The notes under the pieces: generated by a model | The model's database searches: none | Seen by the model: the letters and a program-made list of their open reading frames with translations, nothing else | Told to the model about the DNA's origin: nothing | Position numbers and translations under genes: made by a program | In this document: positions 193-12,711 of the stretch, piece after piece | How the letters are laid out: each line of letters starts with the position of its first letter | Numbering within the stretch: the stretch's first letter is position 1 | Source of the DNA: a virus | UHGV virus genome: UHGV-1842250 | Reading direction: 5' to 3' (one strand) | Length of the DNA stretch: 13,971 bases

Positions 193-1449
193 GTGCTTAC
201 CGATACAAAATTAAAAAACCTCAAGCCGCAGGACAAACTGTACAAGGTCTCCGATCGTGACGGGCTGTATGTAGCTGTGCTTACGTCAGGCACGGTCTCG
301 TTTCGCTATGACTACCGTATCAACGGTCGCCGCGAAACACTGGTAATCGGGCAGTATGGGCGTGACGGTATCAGCCTGGCAGAAGCGCGAGAAGAACTGA
401 TTGCTGCAAAGAAGCTGCTTAAAGCAGGCCAGTCGCCGGCTGCGGCTAAACGTGACGGTATCAAAAAGATTCGTGGTGCCGAGACGTTTGCGGTACATAC
501 CGACAGTTATATGAAACACGTCATCCTGGCTGACAGTACCCGCGCAATGAAGCAGGCGGTGATCGACCGTGACATACTTCCGGTTCTTGGCAACAAAATG
601 ATGGCTGAAATTACCACATCGATGGTTCGTGATTTGTGTGACCGGATTGTCGAACGCGGTGGTCGGGCAACAGCAGTACAGGCCAGGGAGATCATCAGCA
701 GCGTATACCGTCACGCCAATGACCGTGGTCATGGTTTGTTTAATCCTGCGGCTGACATTAAACCTTCGTCTATCGCCATATTTAAACCACGAGAGCGAAC
801 ACTGACACCAGAAGAAATTGGCCTGTTCTTCCGCACGCTGGATGCCATTTGTGCTATGGGCACTATGAAAATGGCTTTAAAGCTGGTGCTTATCACTATG
901 GTTCGTAAAGGCGAATTCACCAATGCAACGTGGGATGAAATAGATTTTAAAAAATGGACATGGACAATTCCTTCAGACCGCATGAAGGGAAGCCGGGCGC
1001 ACGTTATTTACCTGCCTAAACAGGCACAGGATATATTGGTTGGGTTGCAGATGTGCGCTGGTGGAAGTGAATATCTGGTTCCTGGTCGTTACAATTTCCG
1101 GAAGCCATTATCTAATGCCGCGCTGAACTCTCTGATCGACAGAACGGTGAAAATAATAAATGAAGATGGTGAGCATATTCAGGACTTCACCGTACACGAT
1201 ATGCGCCGTACAGCAAGTACGTTGTTGCATGAGGCTGGTTATCCTTCAGACTGGATTGAAAAGGCTCTGGCACATGAGCAGAAAGGTGTGCGCGCCGTAT
1301 ATAACAAAGCGGAATACGCCAGACAGCGCGCCTACATGTTGCAGCAGTGGGCCGATATGATTGATTCCTGGATTAACGGGGAGCATACGGATCTGATTCC
1401 GTTCTCCCCGTCGAAGTTTGAGAGGTGGATGGAAGACAGTAATAAATAA
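193..1449 (+). CDS. int: Tyrosine site-specific integrase, P4/IntS-like family
   Basis: 418-aa ORF with GTG start. The N-terminus (MLTDTKLKNLKP...DGLYVAV...G...RY) is typical of P4-type integrases, and the C-terminus has catalytic-region motifs (HDMRRTASTLLHEAGY ... YNKAEYARQR). Confidence 0.93.
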   Translation: MLTDTKLKNLKPQDKLYKVSDRDGLYVAVLTSGTVSFRYDYRINGRRETLVIGQYGRDGISLAEAREELIAAKKLLKAGQSPAAAKRDGIKKIRGAETFAVHTDSYMKHVILADSTRAMKQAVIDRDILPVLGNKMMAEITTSMVRDLCDRIVERGGRATAVQAREIISSVYRHANDRGHGLFNPAADIKPSSIAIFKPRERTLTPEEIGLFFRTLDAICAMGTMKMALKLVLITMVRKGEFTNATWDEIDFKKWTWTIPSDRMKGSRAHVIYLPKQAQDILVGLQMCAGGSEYLVPGRYNFRKPLSNAALNSLIDRTVKIINEDGEHIQDFTVHDMRRTASTLLHEAGYPSDWIEKALAHEQKGVRAVYNKAEYARQRAYMLQQWADMIDSWINGEHTDLIPFSPSKFERWMEDSNK

Positions 1450-1451
1450 TT

Positions 1452-2111
1452 CTATCCTTCCTGGACTTTGGTAAGCGTCAGATTTCCGCAGAACACTGCG
1501 CCGGTGTCGATGTACATCTGGTTTGCATACACCAGTGGGTGATGTGCTGGCGTATGACCGAAGATGAACAAATCGGCACCGGTTATCTCCGAGACAATAC
1601 CGTCCTGCGCGTCGCTAACCCGCTCACGATTCCATATCACCATTTCTTCTGGTACTTGCTTATCGAATGCGTATTCGTTGTGCGGGTAGTCTGCGTGACA
1701 GATGACGACCTTCTTATTGCCGGTAACCAGTTCGATAATCATCGGGAGGTTGGTAATCTTTGGCAGAAGGTATTTGAGTTGCACATCCTGCTCAGAATCA
1801 AGTTGGTGCCACCATCCACCGCCGTTTGACATCCAATGTCCGAAACTTCCGCCGTTGACCAGTGCATCCAGCATCATCTGCTCATGGTTGCCACGAACAG
1901 CTCGGAACCACGGCATAGTAATCAAATCCAGGCATTCGACGTTTTCAGCGCCGCGGTCAACAAGGTCACCAACGGAAATAAGTAAATCGCGCGCCGGGTC
2001 GAATGAAACTTTGTCGAGTTCGTTCATCAGCAGCGTGTAGCACCCATGCAGATCGCCGACGACGAAGATATTGCACCAGTCAGCGCCATTGATGCGTTGA
2101 TATAGGTTCAT
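1452..2111 (-). CDS. Ser/Thr protein phosphatase, lambda-PPase / PrpA-B family metallophosphoesterase
   Basis: The translation carries the metallophosphatase signature GDLHGCY ... GDLVDRG ... GNHE ... ICHADYP ... GHTP. Start refined to the ATG at 2111 ([12 protein letters not shown]), which overlaps the upstream stop as ATGA; the track's longer N-terminus runs into the upstream gene. Stop TAG at 1452-1454, 2 bp from the int stop. Confidence 0.93.
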
Positions 2112-2758
2112 GCTGCACGCTCCCGCCCCTGGTTGTCTATTGGTGACACCGGAGCATTGCTGAATGCATTTGTTAATCCGCCAATATCCAACGCGTATCC
2201 AGGGTGTAGTTGCACTGCCGGGTCTTCGCACTGATTACCCCAAACATCGAAGCCATGAGACGTCTGGCGGGCGAACAGTTCAATGCGAGAAACATCGCCT
2301 AACAATTGCACAAGTTTTTCACGAACGACATCTGGTTTTCTTGAATGCTCAAGCCGCGGTGCGGTAAATGACTGAACGATCCCTGCATTAATGCGTGGAG
2401 GTAGTTTTCCCTTTACTGCAAACAGGCAATCTTCACTATTGGCGCGAGTCATGTGTCCCATACCCATAACCAGTTTATCTGGTTGTCGACTACCACATTT
2501 TATCCACGTGAAGCCCTTCATCGTCATCAGACGAAATCCCCAGGCTTCAACAACTTTTAGTGCTTCGAGTGGTTGTGTTGGCACCCACCACATGGCCAAC
2601 AGACAGTTTTCAGCGGTCAAATCCCACACAGGAAGGCGGCAGATATCCAGCACACTCATAACTGGATATTTAAAACCGGCACCGCGATTACCATCTGCGG
2701 CTTTGTCCCGGTATACCCAGGGTGGATCTGCATAGATTAGTGTGTATTTCTTAGTCAT
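2108..2758 (-). CDS. MT-A70-family DNA N6-adenine methyltransferase
   Basis: N-terminus [16 protein letters not shown] contains the DPPW catalytic motif of MT-A70 / phage Dam-like methyltransferases. Start ATG at 2758 is preceded by a G-rich SD (GGGGTGG); the stop TGA overlaps the phosphatase ATG as ATGA. Confidence 0.88.
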
Positions 2759-3050
2759 AAACCACCCCACAACATCCTATGCCGCTATAGTCGCCACGGC
2801 GAAGGCCGTTACCTTTTGTGATACATTGGTCCCTGCGAACCGCGATCCTTGCACGTTCAACATCACCAGAAGCAACATCCATACACTGAAGCCAAAGGTG
2901 AGCGGCAATGCGGAATTGCCCTTTTTTCTCTCTTTCAATCGCGCGTTTTTCGATCTCTATCGCCGCAGGAGTAACGGCGACAATCTTTGAAGGGCTGCGC
3001 ATTGAAACCTTGTTCATGTGATATTTTTCAAGTCGGCTTAACTTTCTCAC
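2751..3050 (-). CDS. Hypothetical protein, function unknown
   Basis: Only sizeable ORF filling the 400-bp gap between the excisionase and methyltransferase genes on the operon strand. GTG at 3050 is preceded by GAGGG; alternative ATG starts at 3017 and 3002. Its 3' end overlaps the methyltransferase start by 8 nt. I recognise no family. Confidence 0.45.
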   Translation of the reverse strand: MRKLSRLEKYHMNKVSMRSPSKIVAVTPAAIEIEKRAIEREKKGQFRIAAHLWLQCMDVASGDVERARIAVRRDQCITKGNGLRRGDYSGIGCCGVVYD

Positions 3051-3457: not shown

Positions 3458-4399
3458 TTACATAGATGTTTCGTTTAATTCTTCTCGACGAACGCTGTAA
3501 ACGTCGGTGGCTTTTGCCAGCAGTTCGTCATCATCTGAAAGTTTTTGTGCAATGTATTTGTAAGCCTTATCCAGTTCGGAGACAGTGCTGTAATTCATCG
3601 CTGCGCTGGTAAAGGCCATCAGCATTTCTTCTGGATCACGGCTATCCGATTTACGCGTTTGCTCATCAGGCTTTTTCGCTGGTTTAGCGTTGATCAGACT
3701 GTTCATTCCCGCAGCAGTGGTCGTTTGCGGAGTAATGTCTCGCTCAACGCGCGGTGCCGTTTCCTGTAATTCGTCTGGGGTGTAGACGCCCATGATTACG
3801 TCAGGACAGTGCAGGCGAGACCAGCGTTTTGTCGCAAGGTATGCGAGTTGTTGTTTCGGATCACTGGCCCAAAGTGTGGAGTTTCTTACCTGTGCTTGAG
3901 ACAGCATTAACTCAAGCACTCGAGGTTGATCCTCGCCCTTCATGGTTGCCCATACGCGAACACCGCAGCCTTCTTCGTCTTTTAGAGTCCAGCCTGGTGC
4001 GATATATGGATTGCCGTTTTTGGATGTTTTCTCAACAAACTTACCGATCACGCGTTCCCACGGCCCAAACCACTCGTAGTTGATGCGATCTTTTGTTGGC
4101 GACATCGTTGAGATAACTGCGTTTACTAATTGGGCTTCATAACCTAGCGTGCCGTTCACAACATGGGTTTTCTGAGCCACGGCAAACGGGTTCATTCCCC
4201 ACTGCGCAGCCTGCATTGCCACGGCCATGCAATCAGCTGGTTTCCCGGCGAGGTGCGCCGGTACCGTTACGCGGCTTTGCGCCATTACCTCGGCGAATTT
4301 CATCAGTTGGTTCAAGCCGTCTGGGCTGAAAATAGTTGCAGCAGTTCCAGCGATTGCTGTGTCTACTGGTGCGTTGATGTTTGCGATGTCGTTGCTCAT
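3458..4399 (-). CDS. bet: Single-strand annealing protein, RecT/Red-beta (Bet) family
   Basis: 313 aa. The segment ETAPRVERDITPQ resembles the lambda Bet region ERQPERDITPV, and the gene sits directly downstream of an exonuclease gene as in the lambda exo-bet pair. Start ATG at 4399 has AGGA upstream and overlaps the exonuclease stop (ATGA). Confidence 0.85.
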   Translation of the reverse strand: MSNDIANINAPVDTAIAGTAATIFSPDGLNQLMKFAEVMAQSRVTVPAHLAGKPADCMAVAMQAAQWGMNPFAVAQKTHVVNGTLGYEAQLVNAVISTMSPTKDRINYEWFGPWERVIGKFVEKTSKNGNPYIAPGWTLKDEEGCGVRVWATMKGEDQPRVLELMLSQAQVRNSTLWASDPKQQLAYLATKRWSRLHCPDVIMGVYTPDELQETAPRVERDITPQTTTAAGMNSLINAKPAKKPDEQTRKSDSRDPEEMLMAFTSAAMNYSTVSELDKAYKYIAQKLSDDDELLAKATDVYSVRREELNETSM

Positions 4400-4926
4400 A
4401 TGTACATATCCTGTTTGCGTGCCCACTCAGGGCGTTTAATGATTTCCACACCGCCCCATTCATCATTGATGCGGCATTCGTGATAGGTATTCAGATCCCG
4501 GCGGAACAGAGCGTGCCCGGCATCGACATCCTGCGCATCCAGCTCGAACACGCGTACCGGATACCGACCACAATCAATGCTTTCGCTCACGGCAAGAAAG
4601 AAAAAACCATGCGGCTGACCAGTAACCCTCATTGCGCCTTCGCGGTACATTGCGTCCTGCACGTGGTAGCGGAATTCCTCGATGTGGCGTGCAAAACGGT
4701 CCATATCTGCAACCTTTTTCACGTCGACGATCACGTTGTGCTCGTTCAGCCATTTGTCTGGACGAATTCGGCACAACTCACCCGTCTCTTCATCGTTCCA
4801 GTACATTGATGCTTCGCAGTAACCAGGTGCTTCCAACATCCAGCGTGCCGCCGGATGAGCCATTGCGCTATCACGCATAAGCTCCAGTTTCCGCCACTGC
4901 TCGGCATCAAGTACCGTAATCACCAT
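4396..4926 (-). CDS. PD-(D/E)xK exonuclease, C-terminal part (gene interrupted by a frameshift)
   Basis: Contains the nuclease core motifs RIRPD ... VIVDVKKV. This reading frame is open from 5130 to 4396, but its first ~55 codons overlap the N-terminal fragment's frame and look non-coding; 4926 is the first internal ATG. The partner fragment is 4937..5212. Confidence 0.7.
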   Translation of the reverse strand: MVITVLDAEQWRKLELMRDSAMAHPAARWMLEAPGYCEASMYWNDEETGELCRIRPDKWLNEHNVIVDVKKVADMDRFARHIEEFRYHVQDAMYREGAMRVTGQPHGFFFLAVSESIDCGRYPVRVFELDAQDVDAGHALFRRDLNTYHECRINDEWGGVEIIKRPEWARKQDMYI

Positions 4927-4936
4927 ATCCGCCACA

Positions 4937-5212
4937 TCACGAAGCCTCTTCGTCAGCTTTACCTTGTTTCGTCCGACGATCGAATTTCGGTGAAACAATG
5001 AAGCGTTTGTCGAACTCTCCAGGCTCCAGAAGCAGACAGTGCAATGCGGTTCCCATATCCAGTGCAGACTTTTTCTCTTCGTCTTCTGGTGCTGCCTGAA
5101 CCCATTTAAGAAGCGCCGGATTCTTGGCAACCATGTCCAGTTGCGACTTACTCACGCCGTCACCGGCGTGGTAGTCTTCGTTGCTGATGTCGAAATAAAT
5201 TCCCGGTTTCAT
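4937..5212 (-). CDS. PD-(D/E)xK exonuclease, N-terminal part (ends at a premature stop after a probable frameshift)
   Basis: 91 aa beginning MKPGIYFDISNEDYHAGDGVSKSQL ... GTALHCLLLEPGEFDKRF, which looks like the N-terminal region of phage Cas4/RecB-like exonucleases. Good SD (GAGGGA) before the ATG at 5212. The frame stops at 4937 while a second frame continues the nuclease domain. Confidence 0.7.
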   Translation of the reverse strand: MKPGIYFDISNEDYHAGDGVSKSQLDMVAKNPALLKWVQAAPEDEEKKSALDMGTALHCLLLEPGEFDKRFIVSPKFDRRTKQGKADEEAS

Positions 5213-5510: not shown

Positions 5511-5663
5511 TCAGCCCTCCCATATCTCGTTATCGTTGGCTACATCGCGAGCTTCTTTGCTGACGAAAGCCCACTTAATGCCTTCCTGTAAGGTGCGGAA
5601 CTTCCAGCTCATGAATCCGCATGCAGTAACGCAGTACCAACCGTTGATGATTTTCCACTGCAT
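5511..5663 (-). CDS. 50-aa micro-ORF, first gene of the leftward operon, possibly cIII-like
   Basis: Translated by hand as MQWKIINGWYCVTACGFMSWKFRTLQEGIKWAFVSKEARDVANDNEIWEG. It lies about 27 nt downstream of the predicted leftward promoter, has GAGG upstream, and stops 2 nt before the next start. Loose resemblance to lambda CIII (MQYAIAGW..AGC ... RKLRDGWKRLI). Too short for the ORF track. Confidence 0.35.
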   Translation of the reverse strand: MQWKIINGWYCVTACGFMSWKFRTLQEGIKWAFVSKEARDVANDNEIWEG

Positions 5664-5682
5664 AACTTGTTACCTCGGTCTG

Positions 5683-5697
5683 TTACCGTTGAGGTAA
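5683..5697. promoter_or_regulatory. Operator site, perfect palindrome TTACCGTTGAGGTAA, promoter-proximal in the leftward (PL-like) promoter
   Basis: Exact TTACC-N5-GGTAA. It abuts the candidate -10 of the leftward promoter, and an extra TTACC half-site sits at 5670-5674. Confidence 0.6.
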
Positions 5698-5725
5698 TAA
5701 TTATGCGTATATGGTTTGGTGTCAA
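5697..5725 (-). promoter_or_regulatory. Candidate leftward early promoter (PL analogue)
   Basis: On the minus strand: perfect -35 TTGACA (5725..5720), 17-bp spacer, -10 AATTAT (5702..5697). Flanked by operator sites at 5745-5759 and 5683-5697, the same layout as the promoter at 8778-8806. Confidence 0.5.
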
Positions 5726-5744
5726 TAGATATGAGTTAAAAAAA

Positions 5745-5759
5745 TTACCCGTTAGGTAA
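5745..5759. promoter_or_regulatory. Operator site, perfect palindrome TTACCCGTTAGGTAA, promoter-distal in the leftward promoter
   Basis: Exact TTACC-N5-GGTAA, centred 62 bp from the site at 5683-5697. Confidence 0.6.
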
Positions 5760-5772
5760 TCGAATAGGCAAT

Positions 5773-5795
5773 AAAAAAGCCGCCATAAGGCGGCT
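5773..5795 (-). terminator. Rho-independent terminator after the repressor gene
   Basis: On the minus strand, stem GCCGCC / GGCGGC with 4-nt loop followed by a U-tract (plus strand AAAAAAGCCGCCATAAGGCGGCT), about 20 bp after the repressor stop codon. Confidence 0.65.
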
Positions 5796-5816
5796 TACTT
5801 ACTGAAAAATATGATT

Positions 5817-6401
5817 TTATTGTTTGTTTTTTTCGTTCTGGTTGATGACAAATTCAATGTAACTTTCGATCTTTGCCTTCTCTGTTTCAGGTAACAATGC
5901 GTAGCGCGAGCGGTCATAGTTGATAGTTGCAGGGTCATGCGGATGAATCAGTAGTTCATATCCGTGACGCCCGAATGCAGATGCAACATTCTCCAGGGTG
6001 GAAATGGAAACGCTGACCTCATTGTTTAACAGGCGGCTTATTGTCACCTGGGCGACGCCGGATGCGCGGTGAAGTTTTCCCTGAGTTGAAAGGTCGCGGC
6101 TTTCACTCATCCAGCGTTCCAGGTTGTGAGCTGCCAGCTGACCAATGTCGCTTGGGCCGACAGGCTGAAAACCTTCCTGAGAAAGCGAGCGATCGATATC
6201 AAGCCAGTTACGGGGTTTATTGGCGGCAGCTTCAATTTTTCGCGCAACCTGGTCGCCGATAACTTTCTTGCCAAGAGCCCAGCGGTTTACCAGATTTGCC
6301 TGAGTTCCAAGTTTTTCTGCCATCCGCGTCTGAACACCATTGAATTCACGGTCGATCAAGTCGTTGAGATTTTGCCTGCGGACGTCCTGGATACTTTTCA
6401 T
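5817..6401 (-). CDS. Phage repressor (cI analogue) with two HTH domains and no recognisable LexA/S24 autocleavage domain
   Basis: 194 aa, divergent from the Cro-like gene across an operator-rich spacer. HTH-like segments QTRMAEKLGTQANLVNRW and ASGVAQVTISRLLNNEVSVSISTLENVA. No S24 peptidase serine-lysine dyad or Ala-Gly cleavage context seen. No SD before the ATG, so the transcript may be leaderless. Confidence 0.8.
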   Translation of the reverse strand: MKSIQDVRRQNLNDLIDREFNGVQTRMAEKLGTQANLVNRWALGKKVIGDQVARKIEAAANKPRNWLDIDRSLSQEGFQPVGPSDIGQLAAHNLERWMSESRDLSTQGKLHRASGVAQVTISRLLNNEVSVSISTLENVASAFGRHGYELLIHPHDPATINYDRSRYALLPETEKAKIESYIEFVINQNEKNKQ

Positions 6402-6456
6402 TTTCTGGAAAATCGCCTCATATATGAATCAGTAGATGATTCAATTTAAAGCAATA

Positions 6457-6519
6457 TTACCCAACAGGTAAATGCACCTCATAGGTAACTATCCTTGATT
6501 TTTGTTACCTTATGGGTGA
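6457..6519. promoter_or_regulatory. Immunity-region operator cluster of three sites between the repressor and cro-like genes, with divergent promoters
   Basis: Sites at 6457-6471 (TTACCCAACAGGTAA, perfect), 6474-6488 (GCACCTCATAGGTAA) and 6505-6519 (TTACCTTATGGGTGA). Candidate rightward promoter: -35 TTGATT (6494-6499) or TTGTTA (6502-6507), -10 TATTAT (6525-6530), overlapping the third site. Confidence 0.6.
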
Positions 6520-6555
6520 ATATTTATTATCTGAAATAAATATCAGGCAATAGCT

Positions 6556-6786
6556 ATGAGCGATAACGGACATTTCGATTTCAAAAAGCACTGGCTTGCA
6601 CTTACTCCGGATGAGCGTGAAGCCTTCGCACAGGAAGCCGGAACGACGAGTCACTATATCCAGACTCACTTAACAGGTAAGCGCAAAATGCCAGGTAAAG
6701 TATTGATGAATGGGCTTTTTAAAGCCTGTAAAACAAGACAATGGCTGCGCTCAAAAGCAGAACTGGCATACTTCTTCTACTCATGA
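6556..6786 (+). CDS. Cro/CII-like small HTH regulator, first rightward gene
   Basis: 76 aa at the cro position of the divergent immunity cassette, with an HTH-like segment EAFAQEAGTTSHYIQTHLTGKRK. Followed immediately by an intrinsic terminator. Confidence 0.75.
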   Translation: MSDNGHFDFKKHWLALTPDEREAFAQEAGTTSHYIQTHLTGKRKMPGKVLMNGLFKACKTRQWLRSKAELAYFFYS

Positions 6787-6807
6787 TATCCAGCTACAAC
6801 CCTCTGT

Positions 6808-6830
6808 AGACCGCCACCCGGCGGTCTTTT
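6808..6830 (+). terminator. Rho-independent terminator after the cro-like gene (tR1-like position)
   Basis: Stem AGACCGCC (6808-6815) / GGCGGTCT (6820-6827), loop ACCC, T-tract at 6827-6830. Confidence 0.6.
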
Positions 6831-6841
6831 CATATCTATTC

Positions 6842-6856
6842 GTACCTCAAAGGTAA
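6842..6856. promoter_or_regulatory. Operator-like site GTACCTCAAAGGTAA between the terminator and the replication genes
   Basis: 9 of 10 match to TTACC-N5-GGTAA, with the ACCTCA core shared with the sites at 5683, 6474 and 8806. An AT-rich stretch with weak promoter-like hexamers follows (6870-6920). Confidence 0.4.
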
Positions 6857-6934
6857 TAAAAAACCAAATATGGTTGATCAAATTTTCCAATTGTGCAAAA
6901 TAGCCAATATCAATAACAAAAAGGGGCGGAAAAA

Positions 6935-7147
6935 TTGAAGATAGTAACCAGAATGGAGGCCGCAAAAGCCGGGTTAAATCGCTATTTCACAGGAAAGCGG
7001 TGCCGTCACGGCCATCTCTCTGAAAGGTATGTTCTGAACGGAACATGTGTTGAATGTGCAATGAATAGCGCCAACCGCCATCGTAATGAATTTGCTTGTG
7101 CACTAAAGAGTGCAAGAGGGGAAACCTATGGCAAGCAGCTGGATTAA
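6935..7147 (+). CDS. Small Zn-ribbon protein (C-x3-H...C-x2-C), function unknown
   Basis: 70 aa from a TTG start at 6935, preceded by AAGGGG; the internal ATG at 6953 has no SD. Motif RCRHGHLSERYVLNGTCVEC. Its end overlaps the start of the O-like gene by 20 nt. Confidence 0.55.
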   Translation: MKIVTRMEAAKAGLNRYFTGKRCRHGHLSERYVLNGTCVECAMNSANRHRNEFACALKSARGETYGKQLD

Positions 7148-7958
7148 GGTTGAAGTTATCACTCCTGATAAACCTGAAATTTTTCAGATAGCAGAAATTC
7201 TGGGTATTGATCCAGATGCTGTTCTTGGAAAGCTGGTTCGTATATGGGCATGGGCTGACCAGCAAACAATAGACGGTAACGCTGGCAGCGTTACAAAAGG
7301 AGTACTTGATAGACTCGCTTTTATTACAGGATTTGCTGACGCCCTCATTAGCGTCGGATGGCTTGCTTATCATGACGGCAAACTAATTCTTCCAAACTTT
7401 GAGCGACATAATGGAGAATCATCGAAAAAACGTGCACTTACGAATAGAAGAGTGGCAGAGCATCGAAAACGAGTAACGCAAAAAGTAACGCCAACAGCGT
7501 TACAAAAGGAGTTACCAGAGGAAGAGGAAGAGGAAGATATATATAAAACCCCACACATAGCGCACGTGCGCGAGGGTGCTCCGACCAGTGAAGCGAACGG
7601 TATGCCGTTGCAGGTGGCTGAACCTGAATTTCTGGATGGCCTGAGTGAACCCATCGGGAAATTTCCGATGACCGATGGCTGGCATCCGTCGCCGGATTTT
7701 CGACGGCGTGCTGCGCTGTGGGGAACGGCCCTGCCGGAACCGGAATTTACACCTGCTGAACTTGCTGCATTCCGGGATTACTGGATGGCTGAGGGCAAAG
7801 TGTTCACGCAGGTTCAGTGGGAACAAAAATTCGCCAGGCACGTAAATCATATCAGGGGAAAATCAAAAAACGCCGGGAAAAGCGATGAGCTTGACTGGAA
7901 TAACACTGACTGGATAGAAGGGGTGTGGGATGAAATCAACTCCAGAACTTCTCAATGA
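7128..7958 (+). CDS. Replication initiator (lambda O analogue) with DnaT-like C-terminal domain
   Basis: ATG at 7128 preceded by SD GAGGGG. C-terminal motif PSPDFRRRAALWG...PEPEFTPAELAAFRDYWMAEGKVFTQVQWEQKFARHV resembles the DnaT/primosomal C-terminal domain. Iteron-like repeats and an AT-rich patch lie inside the gene, and the lambda-P-like gene follows directly. Confidence 0.8.
   Translation: MASSWIKVEVITPDKPEIFQIAEILGIDPDAVLGKLVRIWAWADQQTIDGNAGSVTKGVLDRLAFITGFADALISVGWLAYHDGKLILPNFERHNGESSKKRALTNRRVAEHRKRVTQKVTPTALQKELPEEEEEEDIYKTPHIAHVREGAPTSEANGMPLQVAEPEFLDGLSEPIGKFPMTDGWHPSPDFRRRAALWGTALPEPEFTPAELAAFRDYWMAEGKVFTQVQWEQKFARHVNHIRGKSKNAGKSDELDWNNTDWIEGVWDEINSRTSQ
7276..7548. repeat. Candidate replication origin inside the O-like gene: iterons, 18-bp exact direct repeat, (GAGGAA)x3 and AT-rich patch
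   Basis: GTAACGC at 7276, 7473 and 7485; its inverse GCGTTAC at 7288 and 7497 (12-bp periodicity in the second cluster). CAGCGTTACAAAAGGAGT is repeated exactly at 7286-7303 and 7495-7512 and is read in different codon frames (AGSVTKGV vs PTALQKEL). CATCGAAAA(A)ACG at 7420 and 7461, GAGGAA x3 at 7518-7535, GATATATATAAAA at 7536-7548. Confidence 0.6.
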
Positions 7959-8706
7959 GTACGATCGCTTACGTGAGCATGGTGTTGCTGTGCATGAAGA
8001 GCGGCGTGACAGCAATGGCAAAAAGGAGCAGGTTGCTAGAATTTTCAATGAACTATTTGTCCAGTTACAGGCTGCATTTCCTGCAAGCGTTTCGACCATA
8101 AGGGAGCAGAACAAACTTAATGAATTCCGTAAGCAATGGATGCTTGCGTTTCTGGAGAATGGGATCACAACAATGGAACAGGTTAACGCTGGTATGCGCC
8201 ACGCCCGCGCCAGTGAATCTCCGTTCTGGCCGTCGCCTGGGCAATTCATCAAGTGGTGCAAAGACAGCAAGATGGTTCTTGGCGTCACCATTGACGATGT
8301 GATGGCGGAGTTTCACCGGTACAGCAAGGAAAAAAGTTTATATCCTGGTGGTCCCGAAAGATTCCCGTGGCGACATCCGGTTATGTACTGGGTCGTATGT
8401 GATACCCGCCGTGCAATGTATCAGCGCCAGCTTAGCGAGATTGAGGTTGAGAAACACGCGCGCAGGCTGCTCGATGATTGGGCGAAAAAGGTGGCTTCCG
8501 GACAGCAGATACCCGATCCGGTGATCAGCATACAGGCAAAGCCAGAACCCATGAGTACACCTCCGGACACAGGGAGAGACGTTTACCATCCACCAGGGCG
8601 AAGTTTCGGGTGTATGCCTAACGCCGCCACCCTGGGGGGAATAACACCGGCGCAGTGGCTGATGGAGGAATACAGGCGGGGAAAGGCGGCAGGATTTATC
8701 AAGTAA
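7930..8706 (+). CDS. P: Replication protein P-like DnaB helicase loader
   Basis: Strong resemblance to lambda P over the block VARIFNELFVQLQAAFPAS...FRKQWMLAFLENGITTMEQVNAGMRHAR...PFWPSPGQFIKWC (lambda P has ...ATFPAS...RRQWVLAFRENGITTMEQVNAGMRVAR...PFLPSPGQFVAWC). Start overlaps the end of the O-like gene. Confidence 0.93.
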   Translation: MKSTPELLNEYDRLREHGVAVHEERRDSNGKKEQVARIFNELFVQLQAAFPASVSTIREQNKLNEFRKQWMLAFLENGITTMEQVNAGMRHARASESPFWPSPGQFIKWCKDSKMVLGVTIDDVMAEFHRYSKEKSLYPGGPERFPWRHPVMYWVVCDTRRAMYQRQLSEIEVEKHARRLLDDWAKKVASGQQIPDPVISIQAKPEPMSTPPDTGRDVYHPPGRSFGCMPNAATLGGITPAQWLMEEYRRGKAAGFIK

Positions 8707-8712
8707 TACCAG

Positions 8713-8730
8713 CGCGATAGCGCATTTTTT
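8713..8730 (+). terminator. Weak candidate intrinsic terminator after the P-like gene
   Basis: 4-bp GC stem (GCGC / GCGC) with GATA loop followed by seven T residues. The stem is short, so this is low confidence. Confidence 0.3.
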
Positions 8731-8743
8731 TACGTCTTGATAA

Positions 8744-8758
8744 TTACCTGCTAGGTAA
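8744..8758. promoter_or_regulatory. Operator site, perfect palindrome TTACCTGCTAGGTAA, promoter-distal in the promoter for the accessory block
   Basis: Exact TTACC-N5-GGTAA, centred 62 bp from the site at 8806-8820, the same spacing as the pair at the leftward promoter. Confidence 0.6.
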
Positions 8759-8777
8759 TAAAATGTTCTAAGATCTA

Positions 8778-8806
8778 TTGATTTCGTGTCTTATGTGGTT
8801 TTTAAT
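8778..8806 (+). promoter_or_regulatory. Candidate sigma70 promoter for the accessory block, duplicated PL-type architecture
   Basis: -35 TTGATT (8778-8783), 17-bp spacer, -10 TTTAAT (8801-8806). The flanking sequence CTATTGA and the operator spacing match the leftward promoter at 5697-5725. Confidence 0.55.
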
Positions 8807-8820
8807 TACCTCAGGGGTAA
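8806..8820. promoter_or_regulatory. Operator site, perfect palindrome TTACCTCAGGGGTAA, overlapping the -10, start region and SD of the gene at 8824
   Basis: Exact TTACC-N5-GGTAA. Its GGGG also serves as the ribosome-binding site for the ATG at 8824. Confidence 0.6.
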
Positions 8821-11391: not shown

Positions 11392-11665
11392 CCTGCAACT
11401 TATCCTCAAAGGTGAATACTTCGATGCCATGATTCGCGGAGAGAAAACGGAAGAGTATCGCCTGTGTAATGACTACTGGAATAAGCGAATTATGTTCCGG
11501 GAGTATGACCGCCTGATTATCACAAAGGGATATCCGAAGCGCGACGATTCCAGCCGTAGAATTGATGTTCCGTATGACGGATATGAAATCAAGACAATCA
11601 CACATCCGCACTTCGGAGATAAACCGGTAAAGGTGTTCGCGATAAAGGTAAATATTGATGGCTAA
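11384..11665 (+). CDS. ASCH/DUF3850-like PUA-fold domain protein
   Basis: GTG start at 11384 with a perfect SD (AGGAGG, 6-nt spacing), overlapping the upstream stop. N-terminus LQLILKGEYFDAMIRGEKTEEYR matches the usual ASCH opening. Confidence 0.6.
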   Translation: MANLQLILKGEYFDAMIRGEKTEEYRLCNDYWNKRIMFREYDRLIITKGYPKRDDSSRRIDVPYDGYEIKTITHPHFGDKPVKVFAIKVNIDG

Positions 11666-11996
11666 ATCAGCAGCAGAGCGCAAAGCCGCTCAGAGAGCCA
11701 GACAAGCTGCATCTGGTGTGCGTAAGCTGGAGATTGTGCTTGATGCTCAGGAAATTGAAATGCTGGAGCGTAACTGTGCCACGCGTCGCCCCGGGCGTGC
11801 GCCTTACGAATTTGGTGAGTATATAGCGTTACTGATCCGCCAGGATGATGCACGCGTGCACGGGCGTATAAAATCGATCAGCAGAACACGTTGCGGTAAG
11901 TGCGGCGAGAGAGTTCCAGTTAATTCATGTCCGTGTAATGGTGACTCACAATGCTGGGTGACTAAAGGCTGGCATGAAACGAAATTAATAGTGTGA
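11658..11996 (+). CDS. Basic N-terminal / Zn-ribbon C-terminal small protein, candidate late-gene regulator
   Basis: 112 aa. Basic helical N-terminus (ERKAAQRARQAASGVRKLEIVLDAQEIEMLERN) and C-terminal CGKCGERVPVNSCPCNG. Last gene before the pre-terminase terminator. The regulator assignment is positional inference only. Confidence 0.55.
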   Translation: MAKSAAERKAAQRARQAASGVRKLEIVLDAQEIEMLERNCATRRPGRAPYEFGEYIALLIRQDDARVHGRIKSISRTRCGKCGERVPVNSCPCNGDSQCWVTKGWHETKLIV

Positions 11997-12004
11997 CATG
12001 TCAC
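11993..12004. promoter_or_regulatory. 12-bp perfect palindrome GTGACATGTCAC overlapping the stop codon of the preceding gene
   Basis: Perfect dyad lying about 40 bp upstream of the terminator at 12046-12071. Could be a protein-binding site. Confidence 0.3.
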
Positions 12005-12045
12005 GAGTAGATTATGCATGATGAATTTGACGGGTTTTGAATACT

Positions 12046-12071
12046 GCCGCCAACTATGGCGGCTTTATTTT
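12046..12071 (+). terminator. Strong rho-independent terminator between the early/accessory genes and the terminase genes
   Basis: 7-bp GC-rich stem GCCGCCA (12046-12052) / TGGCGGC (12057-12063), 4-nt loop ACTA, then TTTATTTT. Confidence 0.7.
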
Positions 12072-12082
12072 GCATGGTACTA

Positions 12083-12115
12083 TTACCACAACGGTAACTA
12101 TTACCACGGTGGTTA
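12083..12115. promoter_or_regulatory. Tandem operator-like sites immediately upstream of the terminase small-subunit gene
   Basis: Perfect TTACCACAACGGTAA (12083-12097) followed 18 bp later by TTACCACGGTGGTTA (12101-12115). Half-sites chain as GGTA-cta-TTACC-N5-GGTAA-cta-TTACC-N5-GGTTA, echoing GGTAACTATCC at 6485-6495. No convincing sigma70 -35/-10 pair nearby. Confidence 0.5.
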
Positions 12116-12711
12116 TGATGCCTGCTGAACCTAAAACCTATAAACGCAAATCAACGCAATTTAAGCCACTAACAGCAATGCAGGAGGCTTATTGCCAGTC
12201 ATACATCAAAACGCCTGAAAACCAGACTCAGGCAGCGATTAACGCAGGATTCTCCCCAAATACAGCGGCAGTTAAAGCCAGTGTCATGATGCGCGATGAA
12301 CGCATTCAAAAACGGATTGCCGAGTTGATGGAGGAGCGCAACAAACGAATGCGCGTCAGTGCTGATTACGTTCTCATGCGCCTGGTGGAGATCGACCAGA
12401 TGGACGTGATCGACATCCTCAACGACGATGGGAGCCTTAAACCAATCCGTGAGTGGCCGAAAATCTGGCGCACTACGCTTAGTGGCTTTGATCTGTCATC
12501 GACCATCATGAACATGAACGAGGATTCGATAGAGACAATCCTCAAAAAAATTAAATGGCCTGACAAGGTGAAGAACCTTGAGCTGATTGGTAAGCATGTT
12601 GATGTCAACGCGTTCAAAGAACGTCTGGATGTTAATGTGAATGTGACAATTGCTGATCGCATAGCAGCAGCCAGGAAGCGACTCAAAGAACGTCAGGATG
12701 GTAATCAGTGA
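12115..12711 (+). CDS. terS: Terminase small subunit
   Basis: Resembles phage small terminase subunits (AYCQSYIKTPENQTQAAINAGFSP...AAVKASVMMRDERIQKRIAEL) and sits directly upstream of, and overlapping, the large-subunit gene. Start taken as ATG 12115 (or 12118); the track's TTG at 12037 would run through the terminator and operator sites. Confidence 0.82.
   Translation: MMPAEPKTYKRKSTQFKPLTAMQEAYCQSYIKTPENQTQAAINAGFSPNTAAVKASVMMRDERIQKRIAELMEERNKRMRVSADYVLMRLVEIDQMDVIDILNDDGSLKPIREWPKIWRTTLSGFDLSSTIMNMNEDSIETILKKIKWPDKVKNLELIGKHVDVNAFKERLDVNVNVTIADRIAAARKRLKERQDGNQ

Follow-up and report, generated by a model that had tools for sequence, protein, structure and literature searches.

The window analysed here is a stretch of 13,971 nucleotides from UHGV virus genome UHGV-1842250, and the region under study is the interval between a small cro-like gene and the first gene of the replication operon (positions 6787-6934, Table 1). 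Positions 5600-7200 of the window are 97-98% identical to the Escherichia phages phiV10, TL-2011b, vB_EcoP_ZX5 and HEMP4, and of 5,426 complete E. coli genomes, 562 (about one in ten) carry related sequence. The window is an E. coli prophage of the epsilon15/phiV10 type, a temperate podophage of the genus Uetakevirus, and is not lambdoid. Within it, the 6787-6934 region forms the right-hand boundary of the immunity cassette, a genuine regulatory boundary and an ordinary one for this phage group. The replication operon opens with a gene for a 70-aa protein whose N-terminus (MKIVTRMEAAK) matches homologues that have ATG or GTG starts in related phages.

Table 1. Genes and predicted regulatory features of the window, in order of position
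Feature	Position	Strand	Remarks
Integrase gene	193-1449		
Leftward early operon	ends at 5663		includes RecT and ExoVIII
PL unit	5683-5759	minus	distal operator 5745-5759; -35 TTGACA 5725-5720; -10 AATTAT 5702-5697; proximal operator 5683-5697
Mirror-image terminator, directly after rep	5777-5796	minus	annotated in phiV10
rep repressor gene	5817-6401	minus	two HTH domains; no peptidase domain
cro-like gene, 76 aa	6556-6786	plus	divergent from rep
Terminator stem-loop AGACCGCC-ACCC-GGCGGTCT	6808-6827	plus	8 pairs, 6 of them G-C; tetraloop
T-rich tail TTTCATATCT	6828-6837	plus	5 T in the first 8; with the last stem T, TTTTCATATCT
Rep operator-like palindrome GTACC-TCAAA-GGTAA, GTACCTCAAAGGTAA	6842-6856		one mismatch to TTACC-N5-GGTAA
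Imperfect palindrome AACC-AAATAT-GGTT	6862-6875		overlaps the predicted -35 hexamer
Predicted -35 TTGATC	6874-6879	plus	inside GGTTGAT, which is invariant in 16 relatives
Predicted -10 CAAAAT	6896-6901	plus	16 nt past the -35; AAAAT invariant in 16 relatives; predicted start near 6908
First replication-operon gene, 70 aa	6935-7147	plus	TTG start; CxxH...CxxC motif; phrog_1081, 2.2e-27
DnaT-like gene	about 7128-7958	plus	domain matches
Lambda-P-like gene (helicase loader)	7930-8706	plus	domain matches
Further early genes	after 8706		
Unit after the P-like gene	8713-8820	plus	short hairpin and T7 8713-8731; promoter TTGATA-16-TAAAAT 8737-8764
Operators of the 8713-8820 unit	8744-8758, 8806-8820	plus	the first lies in the promoter spacer
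Unit before the late (terminase) genes	12046-12115	plus	terminator 12046-12063; operators 12083-12097 and 12101-12115
Terminase genes	from about 12117		

The two divergent genes of the immunity cassette encode a repressor and a small helix-turn-helix (HTH) protein. The repressor, Rep, carries the Pfam HTH_3 domain and matches the SPC32H repressor (PDB 5D50) over its full length (E = 4e-42). According to a paper that reviews earlier work on it (PMC9638917), SPC32H Rep occupies palindromic DNA as a tetramer, in which two DNA-binding pairs are each drawn from different dimers, and an antirepressor dismantles this tetramer. Overexpression of the near-identical ORF21 repressor of ZX5 blocked lytic growth, abolished free phage and cut the holin and endolysin transcripts by >99.9% (PMC9782041). 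The 76-aa product of the cro-like gene matches phrog_35 ("transcriptional repressor"; E = 5.6e-13). Its AlphaFold2 model, which was run with database homologues, is a five-helix bundle with a pLDDT of 88, and the best Foldseek matches of this model were the N-terminal domain of the 434 repressor, YdaS and 434 Cro, with TM scores of 0.55-0.64 and weak E-values. Judged by the model, "cro-like" is a fair structural label for a 76-aa HTH protein of the XRE/434 type. Weak Foldseek E-values are usual for domains as small as this one. The gene corresponds to phiV10 p41, to which it is 100% identical, to epsilon15 gp39 and to SPC32H_042; it is called hypothetical in all three records, and its homologues are all "hypothetical proteins" of enterobacterial origin. 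The cro-like proteins of 16 relatives are 57-100% identical to that of the window. In the window, this gene is predicted to be the only one carried on the PR transcript ahead of the terminator.

A GC-rich hairpin begins 21 nt past the stop codon of the cro-like gene, on the same strand, and ranked first when the window was scanned for terminator-like sites. The hairpin alone has a folding energy of -14.5 kcal/mol, its 74-nt context gave z = -3.28 relative to shuffles, and it survived folding of the entire predicted PR transcript. When hairpins were required to have at least 8 pairs, 6 or more of them G-C, and no fewer than 5 T in 8, the window yielded two, compared with 0.13 expected from 200 dinucleotide shuffles. 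The second of these (5796-5777, minus strand) lies directly 3' of the repressor gene. The element at 6808-6837 combines a GC-rich stem and short loop with a 3' U-rich tract, a position behind a stop codon and a structure that is kept in relatives, all of which are features of intrinsic terminators. A sequence-only reading of this region had described a clean intrinsic terminator directly after the cro-like gene, and the 8-bp GC-rich hairpin, its T-tail, its top rank and the excess over expectation bear that description out. The terminator is also already known from a near-identical phage, as a computational annotation only: the phiV10 record (DQ126339.2) lists, behind p41, a "putative rho-independent terminator" at 33078-33100 that maps exactly to positions 6808-6830 of the window, with one loop base different. 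Two further terminators are marked in the same record, the mirror-image one behind the repressor gene and another behind the P-like gene.

We compared 16 spacers, running from the cro-like stop codon to the next gene, from phages and prophages of ten genera (Escherichia, Enterobacter, Erwinia, Pseudocitrobacter, Scandinavium, Buttiauxella, Kluyvera, Salmonella, Citrobacter and Klebsiella). The hairpin was kept in all 16, with stem sequences that vary by lineage. The Scandinavium stem has one compensated pair (GCCACC/GGTGGC), the epsilon15 group has a G-U pair, and there are several other wobble changes. Stems were compared by a hairpin search in each sequence, the hairpin being out of register in the MAFFT alignment. 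The tails fall into two kinds. The T-tract behind the stem is good in the lineages of E. coli, Enterobacter, Erwinia, Pseudocitrobacter, Scandinavium and Buttiauxella, and poor tails are found in the Salmonella and Citrobacter lineages, with TCCTTCCTGC in epsilon15, SPN1S and the Citrobacter prophages, and in Klebsiella phages (TCCCGCCTCT; pattern TCC(C/T)GCC). Unlike the hairpin and the promoter described below, efficient intrinsic termination is probably not constant across relatives. The terminator of the window is probably real; termination there may be partial, because only four T's are uninterrupted in its T-tract (TTTTCATATCT), and factor-independent readthrough may add to expression of the replication genes.

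Two promoter-like arrangements around the hairpin were set aside. Fletcher et al. (bioRxiv 10.64898/2026.08.19.745784) model promoter-coupled terminators in which a -10 element lies directly behind the T-tract and transcription starts about 10 bp from the 3' end. The 6808-6837 element has no usable -10 behind its T-tract, and the conserved hexamers place the start about 75 nt downstream. A minus-strand promoter-like match at 6810-6783 overlaps the hairpin and was judged to be due to chance.

An operator-like site and an AT-rich stretch had been noted behind the hairpin from the sequence alone, and both were recovered: the palindrome at 6842-6856 has a single mismatch, and positions 6857-6920 contain 25% GC compared with 49% for the window. 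In the alignment of the 16 spacers, mean column identity is 66%, and conservation is concentrated in four spots: the GC-rich hairpin, which keeps a set distance of 10-16 nt to the next element, then GGTAA, CC-N6-GGTTGAT and AAAAT. The last two contain the predicted -35 and -10 hexamers, which are separated by 15-17 nt of variable sequence in 16/16 relatives. With a rough self-made position weight matrix, the TTGATC/CAAAAT pair outscored all other sigma-70-like matches in 14 of the 16 spacers and ranked second or third in the remaining two. Over the whole window, the same rough matrix placed the pair 56th among 27,880 positions. The hexamers agree with the consensus at 8 of 12 positions, including A2 and T6 of the -10, which is below the 9/12 threshold of our consensus scan; some copies carry TTGATA as the -35, which is nearer to consensus. 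PR (6502-6530), PL (5725-5697) and the promoter at 8737-8764 are all in the top four by score, and each overlaps an operator. The case for a promoter at 6874-6901 is thus a phylogenetic footprint and not a matter of score.

Variation within E. coli follows the same footprint. The 80 E. coli copies taken from IMG/VR carry replication modules of two unrelated types, both joined to the spacer directly past TTGATC and both with CAAAAT kept at a distance of 16-17 nt. In the window, homology with the phiV10 replication module stops directly after TTGATC. Polymorphisms in the 80 copies fall in the hairpin loop, in the left half and spacer of the operator and in the centre of the CC-N6-GG palindrome, and they spare the stem (wobbles aside), GGTAA, GGTTGAT and AAAAT. 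The hexamers are spaced within the 16-18 bp of sigma-70 promoters, and their sequence and spacing are conserved around a variable spacer. Most likely, 6874-6901 is a weak sigma-70 promoter of the replication genes, and a promoter at this place that is weak, or possibly assisted by an activator, is plausible. The sequence-only reading had proposed that the replication genes are expressed either by readthrough under an unknown factor or from a separate promoter in 6860-6930. The promoter half of this proposal gains from hexamers present in 16/16 relatives around a variable spacer, and the antitermination half found no support. The promoter also appears to be the constant and universal route to replication-gene expression, because it is kept even where the T-tract is lost.

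The palindrome at 6842-6856 begins 14 nt past the hairpin and looks like an operator for Rep: a repressor of the 5D50 family is encoded nearby, and the site matches (A)TTACC-N5-GGTAA(T) with one mismatch. Its right half, GGTAA, is invariant in the 16 relatives, and its left half carries 1-4 mismatches and is degenerate in most of them. Allowing up to 2 mismatches, TTACC-N5-GGTAA occurs 20 times in the window compared with 3.9 expected. The sites with at most one mismatch are all intergenic (10/10; intergenic DNA is 7.9% of the window, and 0.03 sites are expected when it is shuffled), and these 10 sites stand at the heads of transcription units. The same holds for the whole phiV10 genome, in which 14/14 sites with at most one mismatch are intergenic and at operon heads when placement is judged by eye against the gene table, although the sites at 87 and 105 lie inside the annotated terminase coding sequence (41-715) and are intergenic only if that gene starts later. 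The phiV10 sites are found ahead of the terminase genes and of the portal gene, around the tail-fibre gene, in the divergent region between oac and lysis genes, before int, at OL, at OR, at the equivalent of the 6842 site and after the P gene. In the epsilon15 record (AY150271.2), "repressor" sites are marked at several operon heads, namely ahead of the terminase, portal and tailspike genes, on the left side of rep and behind the replication gene. The lambda frame in which this region had been read at first is misplaced for an epsilon15/phiV10-type podophage, in which operators head many separate units.

Several of these units share a common build. A hairpin with a T-run, followed by one or more operators and then by the next operon, occurs four times in the window (47-70/136, 6808/6842, 8713/8744+8806 and 12046/12083+12101). 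For the unit behind the P-like gene, a terminator is annotated at the corresponding place in phiV10 and a repressor site in epsilon15; epsilon15 also marks a repressor site at the place equivalent to the unit before the late genes. Operator pairs exactly 62 bp apart recur, at 5683/5745 and 8744/8806 in the window, 31953/32015 and 35070/35132 in phiV10, and 32555/32617 and 35907/35969 in epsilon15. This spacing fits a tetramer that bears two DNA-binding units.

The right-hand boundary has a counterpart on the other side of the cassette. On both flanks, reading outward, a stop codon is followed by a GC-rich hairpin with a T-run, CTATTCG, an operator, about 18 nt, a -35 hexamer, 16-17 nt and a -10 hexamer, such that the PL unit and the right-hand promoter have the same order of elements in mirror image. 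The operator and terminator at 5745-5796 align as an inverted repeat of 6819-6857, with a core of 43 columns and a score that was reached by 1 of 2,000 shuffles. Phage Tyrion has the same mirror arrangement. Rep is made in the lysogen, and PRM transcripts must therefore end short of the lytic PL operon, and PL itself has to be kept repressed. The two sides differ in strength. PL has near-consensus hexamers (TTGACA/AATTAT) and a perfect second operator over its -10 and +1, whereas the promoter on the right is weak, with a decayed proximal operator. The PL operators are centred near -62 and +1, and the operator on the right is centred near -59 of the predicted start, outside the core promoter. 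A remnant of the proximal operator, in the form of a TTACC half-site abutting the -10, is present in 10/16 relatives at a start-to-start distance of 58-60 bp, and is lost in the window. A second operator 62 bp downstream of the first, as at PL, is degenerate in the window and is not claimed here.

Together, these features point to a genome of insulated operons, each directly repressed by a Rep of the SPC32H type, in which the replication genes have their own promoter behind the terminator. From sequence comparison, we assign this reading a probability of about 0.6. The genome would be divided into transcription units, each with a promoter and one or two Rep operators at its head and a hairpin or terminator at its end. 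At the boundary under study, the terminator at 6808-6837 would end, or strongly attenuate, a short PR transcript that carries the cro-like gene only. A copy of the Rep operator (6842-6856) would then precede a weak sigma-70 promoter with a start near 6908 and an A/T-rich, UP-like tract ahead of it, and this promoter (6874-6901) would drive the replication operon (6935-8706). We infer that the 6842 site governs this promoter. Rep bound near -59 would silence the replication promoter in the lysogen, and candidate routes for action from that distance are occlusion of the UP-like tract, pairing through the tetramer with a weak site over the -10 and +1 or with OR, and a roadblock for polymerases that leak through the terminator. 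Once an antirepressor had inactivated Rep, the replication promoter would fire unaided. What the sequence itself shows is the hairpin, the statistics of the motifs, the pattern of conservation, the homologies and the lack of N, Q and nut elements; how efficiently transcription terminates, whether the promoter is active, where it starts and whether Rep binds 6842-6856 enter this scheme as predictions.

The replication genes might instead be expressed mainly by factor-independent readthrough from PR. The hairpin would then be a leaky terminator that acts as an attenuator and sets the ratio of the cro-like protein to the replication proteins, and the TTGATC...CAAAAT pair would add little. There is precedent in lambda, whose tR1 terminator acts partially without N. 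The short and interrupted T-tract of the window (TTTTCATATCT) is in keeping with such leakage, as are the low score of the downstream promoter and the C-rich tails of epsilon15, SPN1S, Citrobacter and Klebsiella, where efficient termination is hardly possible. However, the hexamers are invariant over ten genera while their spacer and flanks drift, a pattern not easily accounted for unless they form a promoter or bind a protein in some other role, and all other units of the genome consist of a terminator, then an operator, then a promoter. We consider it unlikely that readthrough is the main route. It is compatible with a promoter of the replication operon's own, and both routes may contribute.

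The operator copy could also have a purpose other than a local promoter. It might be an auxiliary operator that loops to OR, 340-390 bp away, for repression of PR and PRM, or it might form a stoperator-like roadblock in the lysogen. Its position near -59, off the core promoter and just 14 nt past the hairpin, would suit either role. The fixed 62-bp operator pairs suggest cooperative or looped binding, and the Rep tetramer of SPC32H has two DNA-binding units (PMC9638917). Repressors with dispersed sites are known from mycobacteriophages (PMC1934351). Against this, the left half-site is degenerate in most relatives, and such a site would make a poor high-affinity operator in its own right; its homologue, the distal operator of the left flank, stands equally far upstream of PL, which is a clear promoter; and the conserved hexamers are left unexplained. 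A role apart from the local promoter seems rather improbable to us. Both it and a leaky attenuator are compatible with the model of insulated, directly repressed operons.

The sequence-only reading recognised no N-type protein, and database searches agree with it. None of the ORFs of the window matched N, Q or other antiterminator families in Pfam, PHROGs or NCBIfam. Rfam returned no relevant RNA family in the window, and the only match with E < 1, a sub-threshold RyhB, is really the rep terminator. Neither a boxA-like element on the plus strand nor a nut or put element was found in the window. The first early genes encode no arginine-rich protein of the N kind: the first gene of PL encodes a 50-aa protein (phrog_898) and the next a 104-aa protein (phrog_856), and the PR gene encodes the HTH protein. 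The 21 nt that separate the cro-like stop codon from the hairpin show no conservation in the 16 relatives, and the 5' UTR of PR is about 19 nt long; a nut- or put-type element would therefore have little space. The absence of N is expected rather than anomalous because repressor operators head many separate transcription units, and units that are insulated and directly repressed would have no need for N-type antitermination. Lytic readthrough of 6808-6837 under an unrecognised phage or host factor, whether a protein or a put-like RNA carried on the PR transcript, is very improbable: its sole support is the absence of any tested mechanism, together with small early proteins of no known function (phrog_898, phrog_856 and phrog_1081), and against it stand the empty searches for antiterminator families, Rfam matches and boxA, the little room for such an element and a T-tract that is dispensable in several lineages.

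The arrangement can be compared with those of better-known phages. In lambda, the order is cro, nutR, tR1 and cII-O-P, and tR1 is a Rho-dependent terminator that is overcome by N acting at nutR. The window shares with lambda a terminator that lies directly behind a small lytic HTH gene expressed from PR and ahead of the replication genes, with a split between immediate-early and delayed-early transcription. It differs from lambda in that the terminator is an intrinsic hairpin, that no N, boxA, boxB or equivalent was found in the window, and that a conserved promoter follows the terminator. With epsilon15 and SPC32H, it shares a full-length Rep homologue and the palindrome ATTACC-N5-GGTAAT, with sites at the heads of the early, late, integrase and conversion operons. 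The epsilon15 record, in contrast, has no repressor site or stem-loop marked behind gp39; the site there carries 2 mismatches, and no T-tract follows the hairpin. In phiV10, the same terminator is annotated at the same position, but no operator-like site or promoter is annotated behind it, and the replication module past TTGATC is of a different mosaic type. Mycobacteriophages L5 and L1 similarly have one repressor with many intergenic sites throughout the genome, which act by direct silencing without a cascade. The "stoperators" of L5 are asymmetric and act on elongation in an orientation-dependent manner, whereas the sites of the window are palindromic and mostly overlap or flank promoters.

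In the accessible literature, we found no transcript maps for this phage group and no characterisation of the lytic side of the switch, that is, of the cro-like protein, its targets or the role of the degenerate operator; the ZX5 paper (PMC9782041) is silent on the interval corresponding to 6787-6934. The present comparison corrects a lambda-centred expectation, in that epsilon15-like prophages appear to silence and time their genes by means of many individually repressed, insulated operons and not by antitermination. It also provides precise candidate coordinates for the promoter of the replication operon and places a module junction exactly at the -35 hexamer. Such coordinates are useful for the engineering of reporter phages of the phiV10 and SPC32H types and for prophage annotation. 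General principles are unchanged, and the importance of these points is modest.

One further element overlaps the -35 hexamer. The sequence AACC-N6-GGTT has its sole perfect copy in the window at 6862-6875, and CC-N6-GGTT is kept in all relatives. A protein bound to this palindrome, either the cro-like protein or Rep, could switch the right-hand promoter, with the cassette bracketed by mirror units; we give this idea a low probability. If it were true, a relay from PR through the cro-like protein to the replication promoter would replace N antitermination as the timer between immediate-early and delayed-early expression. As a recurring regulator site, the palindrome was rejected on the grounds that the window contains one perfect copy and that the PL spacer shares only part of it, and it is retained as a lead. 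Its central base is polymorphic among the E. coli copies.

We found a mosaic junction at window position 6879/6880, where phiV10-type homology ends immediately 3' of the -35 hexamer of the predicted replication-operon promoter (TTGATC, 6874-6879). Among 80 E. coli copies of the region between the cro-like gene and the replication genes, either of two unrelated types of replication module is attached at this junction, and CAAAAT is found at 16-17 nt in both types. The predicted promoter seems to serve as a recombination linker between modules. In nearly all relatives the predicted -35 hexamer includes a GATC (Dam) site, and an adenine methylase is encoded by the phage itself. TTGATA replaces TTGATC in some copies, and therefore methylation control of the predicted promoter is not required. 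The replication operon is headed by the phrog_1081 gene in all relatives, irrespective of the type of module downstream; the TL-2011b RefSeq record does not annotate this gene.

Predicted operators for the prophage repressor, Rep, occur in pairs with a start-to-start distance of exactly 62 bp, or about six helical turns, in three phages and before different operons. Because this spacing recurs, it suggests that the two operators of a pair are bridged by a single Rep tetramer. The Rep proteins differ substantially between lineages (window versus L003, L007 and L099), and the window Rep has clearly diverged from that of SPC32H. Despite this divergence, the TTACC/GGTAA half-sites are identical across E. 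coli, Salmonella and Klebsiella phages, and one may ask whether these phages are heteroimmune and, if so, by what means.

Features in the window and paired Rep operators in related phages
Feature	Genome	Position	Strand	Remarks
NinI-like serine/threonine phosphatase gene	window	1452-2231	-	adjoins integrase gene
Adenine methylase gene	window	2108-2770		phage's own
Exonuclease VIII (RecE-like) gene	window	4396-5212	-	two ORFs
phrog_1081 gene	window	6935-7147		70 codons, conserved; TTG start; CxxH...CxxC
phrog_536 gene, 'transcriptional regulator'	window	within 11655-12116		113 aa; directly upstream of terminator and late terminase genes
12-bp palindrome	window	11992-12003		perfect
Terminator	window	12046-12063		strong
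62-bp operator pairs	window	5683/5745; 8744/8806
62-bp operator pairs	phiV10 (L010)	31953/32015; 35070/35132
62-bp operator pairs	epsilon15 (L009)	32555/32617; 35907/35969

The phrog_536 product has a basic, alanine-rich N-terminus (AKSAAERKAAQRARQAA) and a cluster of Cys residues at its C-terminus, and it gave no match in PDB, Pfam or NCBIfam. The palindrome GTGACATGTCAC overlaps the stop codon of its gene. Because the succession of this gene, the terminator and the late genes recalls the Q/PR'/tR' layout of lambda, the protein may act on the late genes as an activator or antiterminator.

The 408-bp low-coverage contig NZ_RAVW01000927.1 (L091), from a myxobacterial assembly labeled 'Corallococcus exercitus', has a gene whose cro-like product shares 100% identity with that of the window, and the contig almost certainly represents contamination with an E. 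coli prophage. The sole Rfam match with E < 1, to RyhB (5771-5829, minus strand), scored 25 bits (gathering score, 55) and is a false positive; the matched sequence is the rep terminator hairpin.

Among the leftward genes, exonuclease VIII is split by the loss of 5 nt following nt 268 relative to TL-2011b gp07, to which it is otherwise ~98% identical. Either this copy of the prophage has a pseudogene here, or the split stems from a sequencing error. A short DUF1382 gene occupies the position of the NinI-like phosphatase gene in phiV10 and TL-2011b, and by this comparison the integrase-adjoining position is a site of variable cargo.
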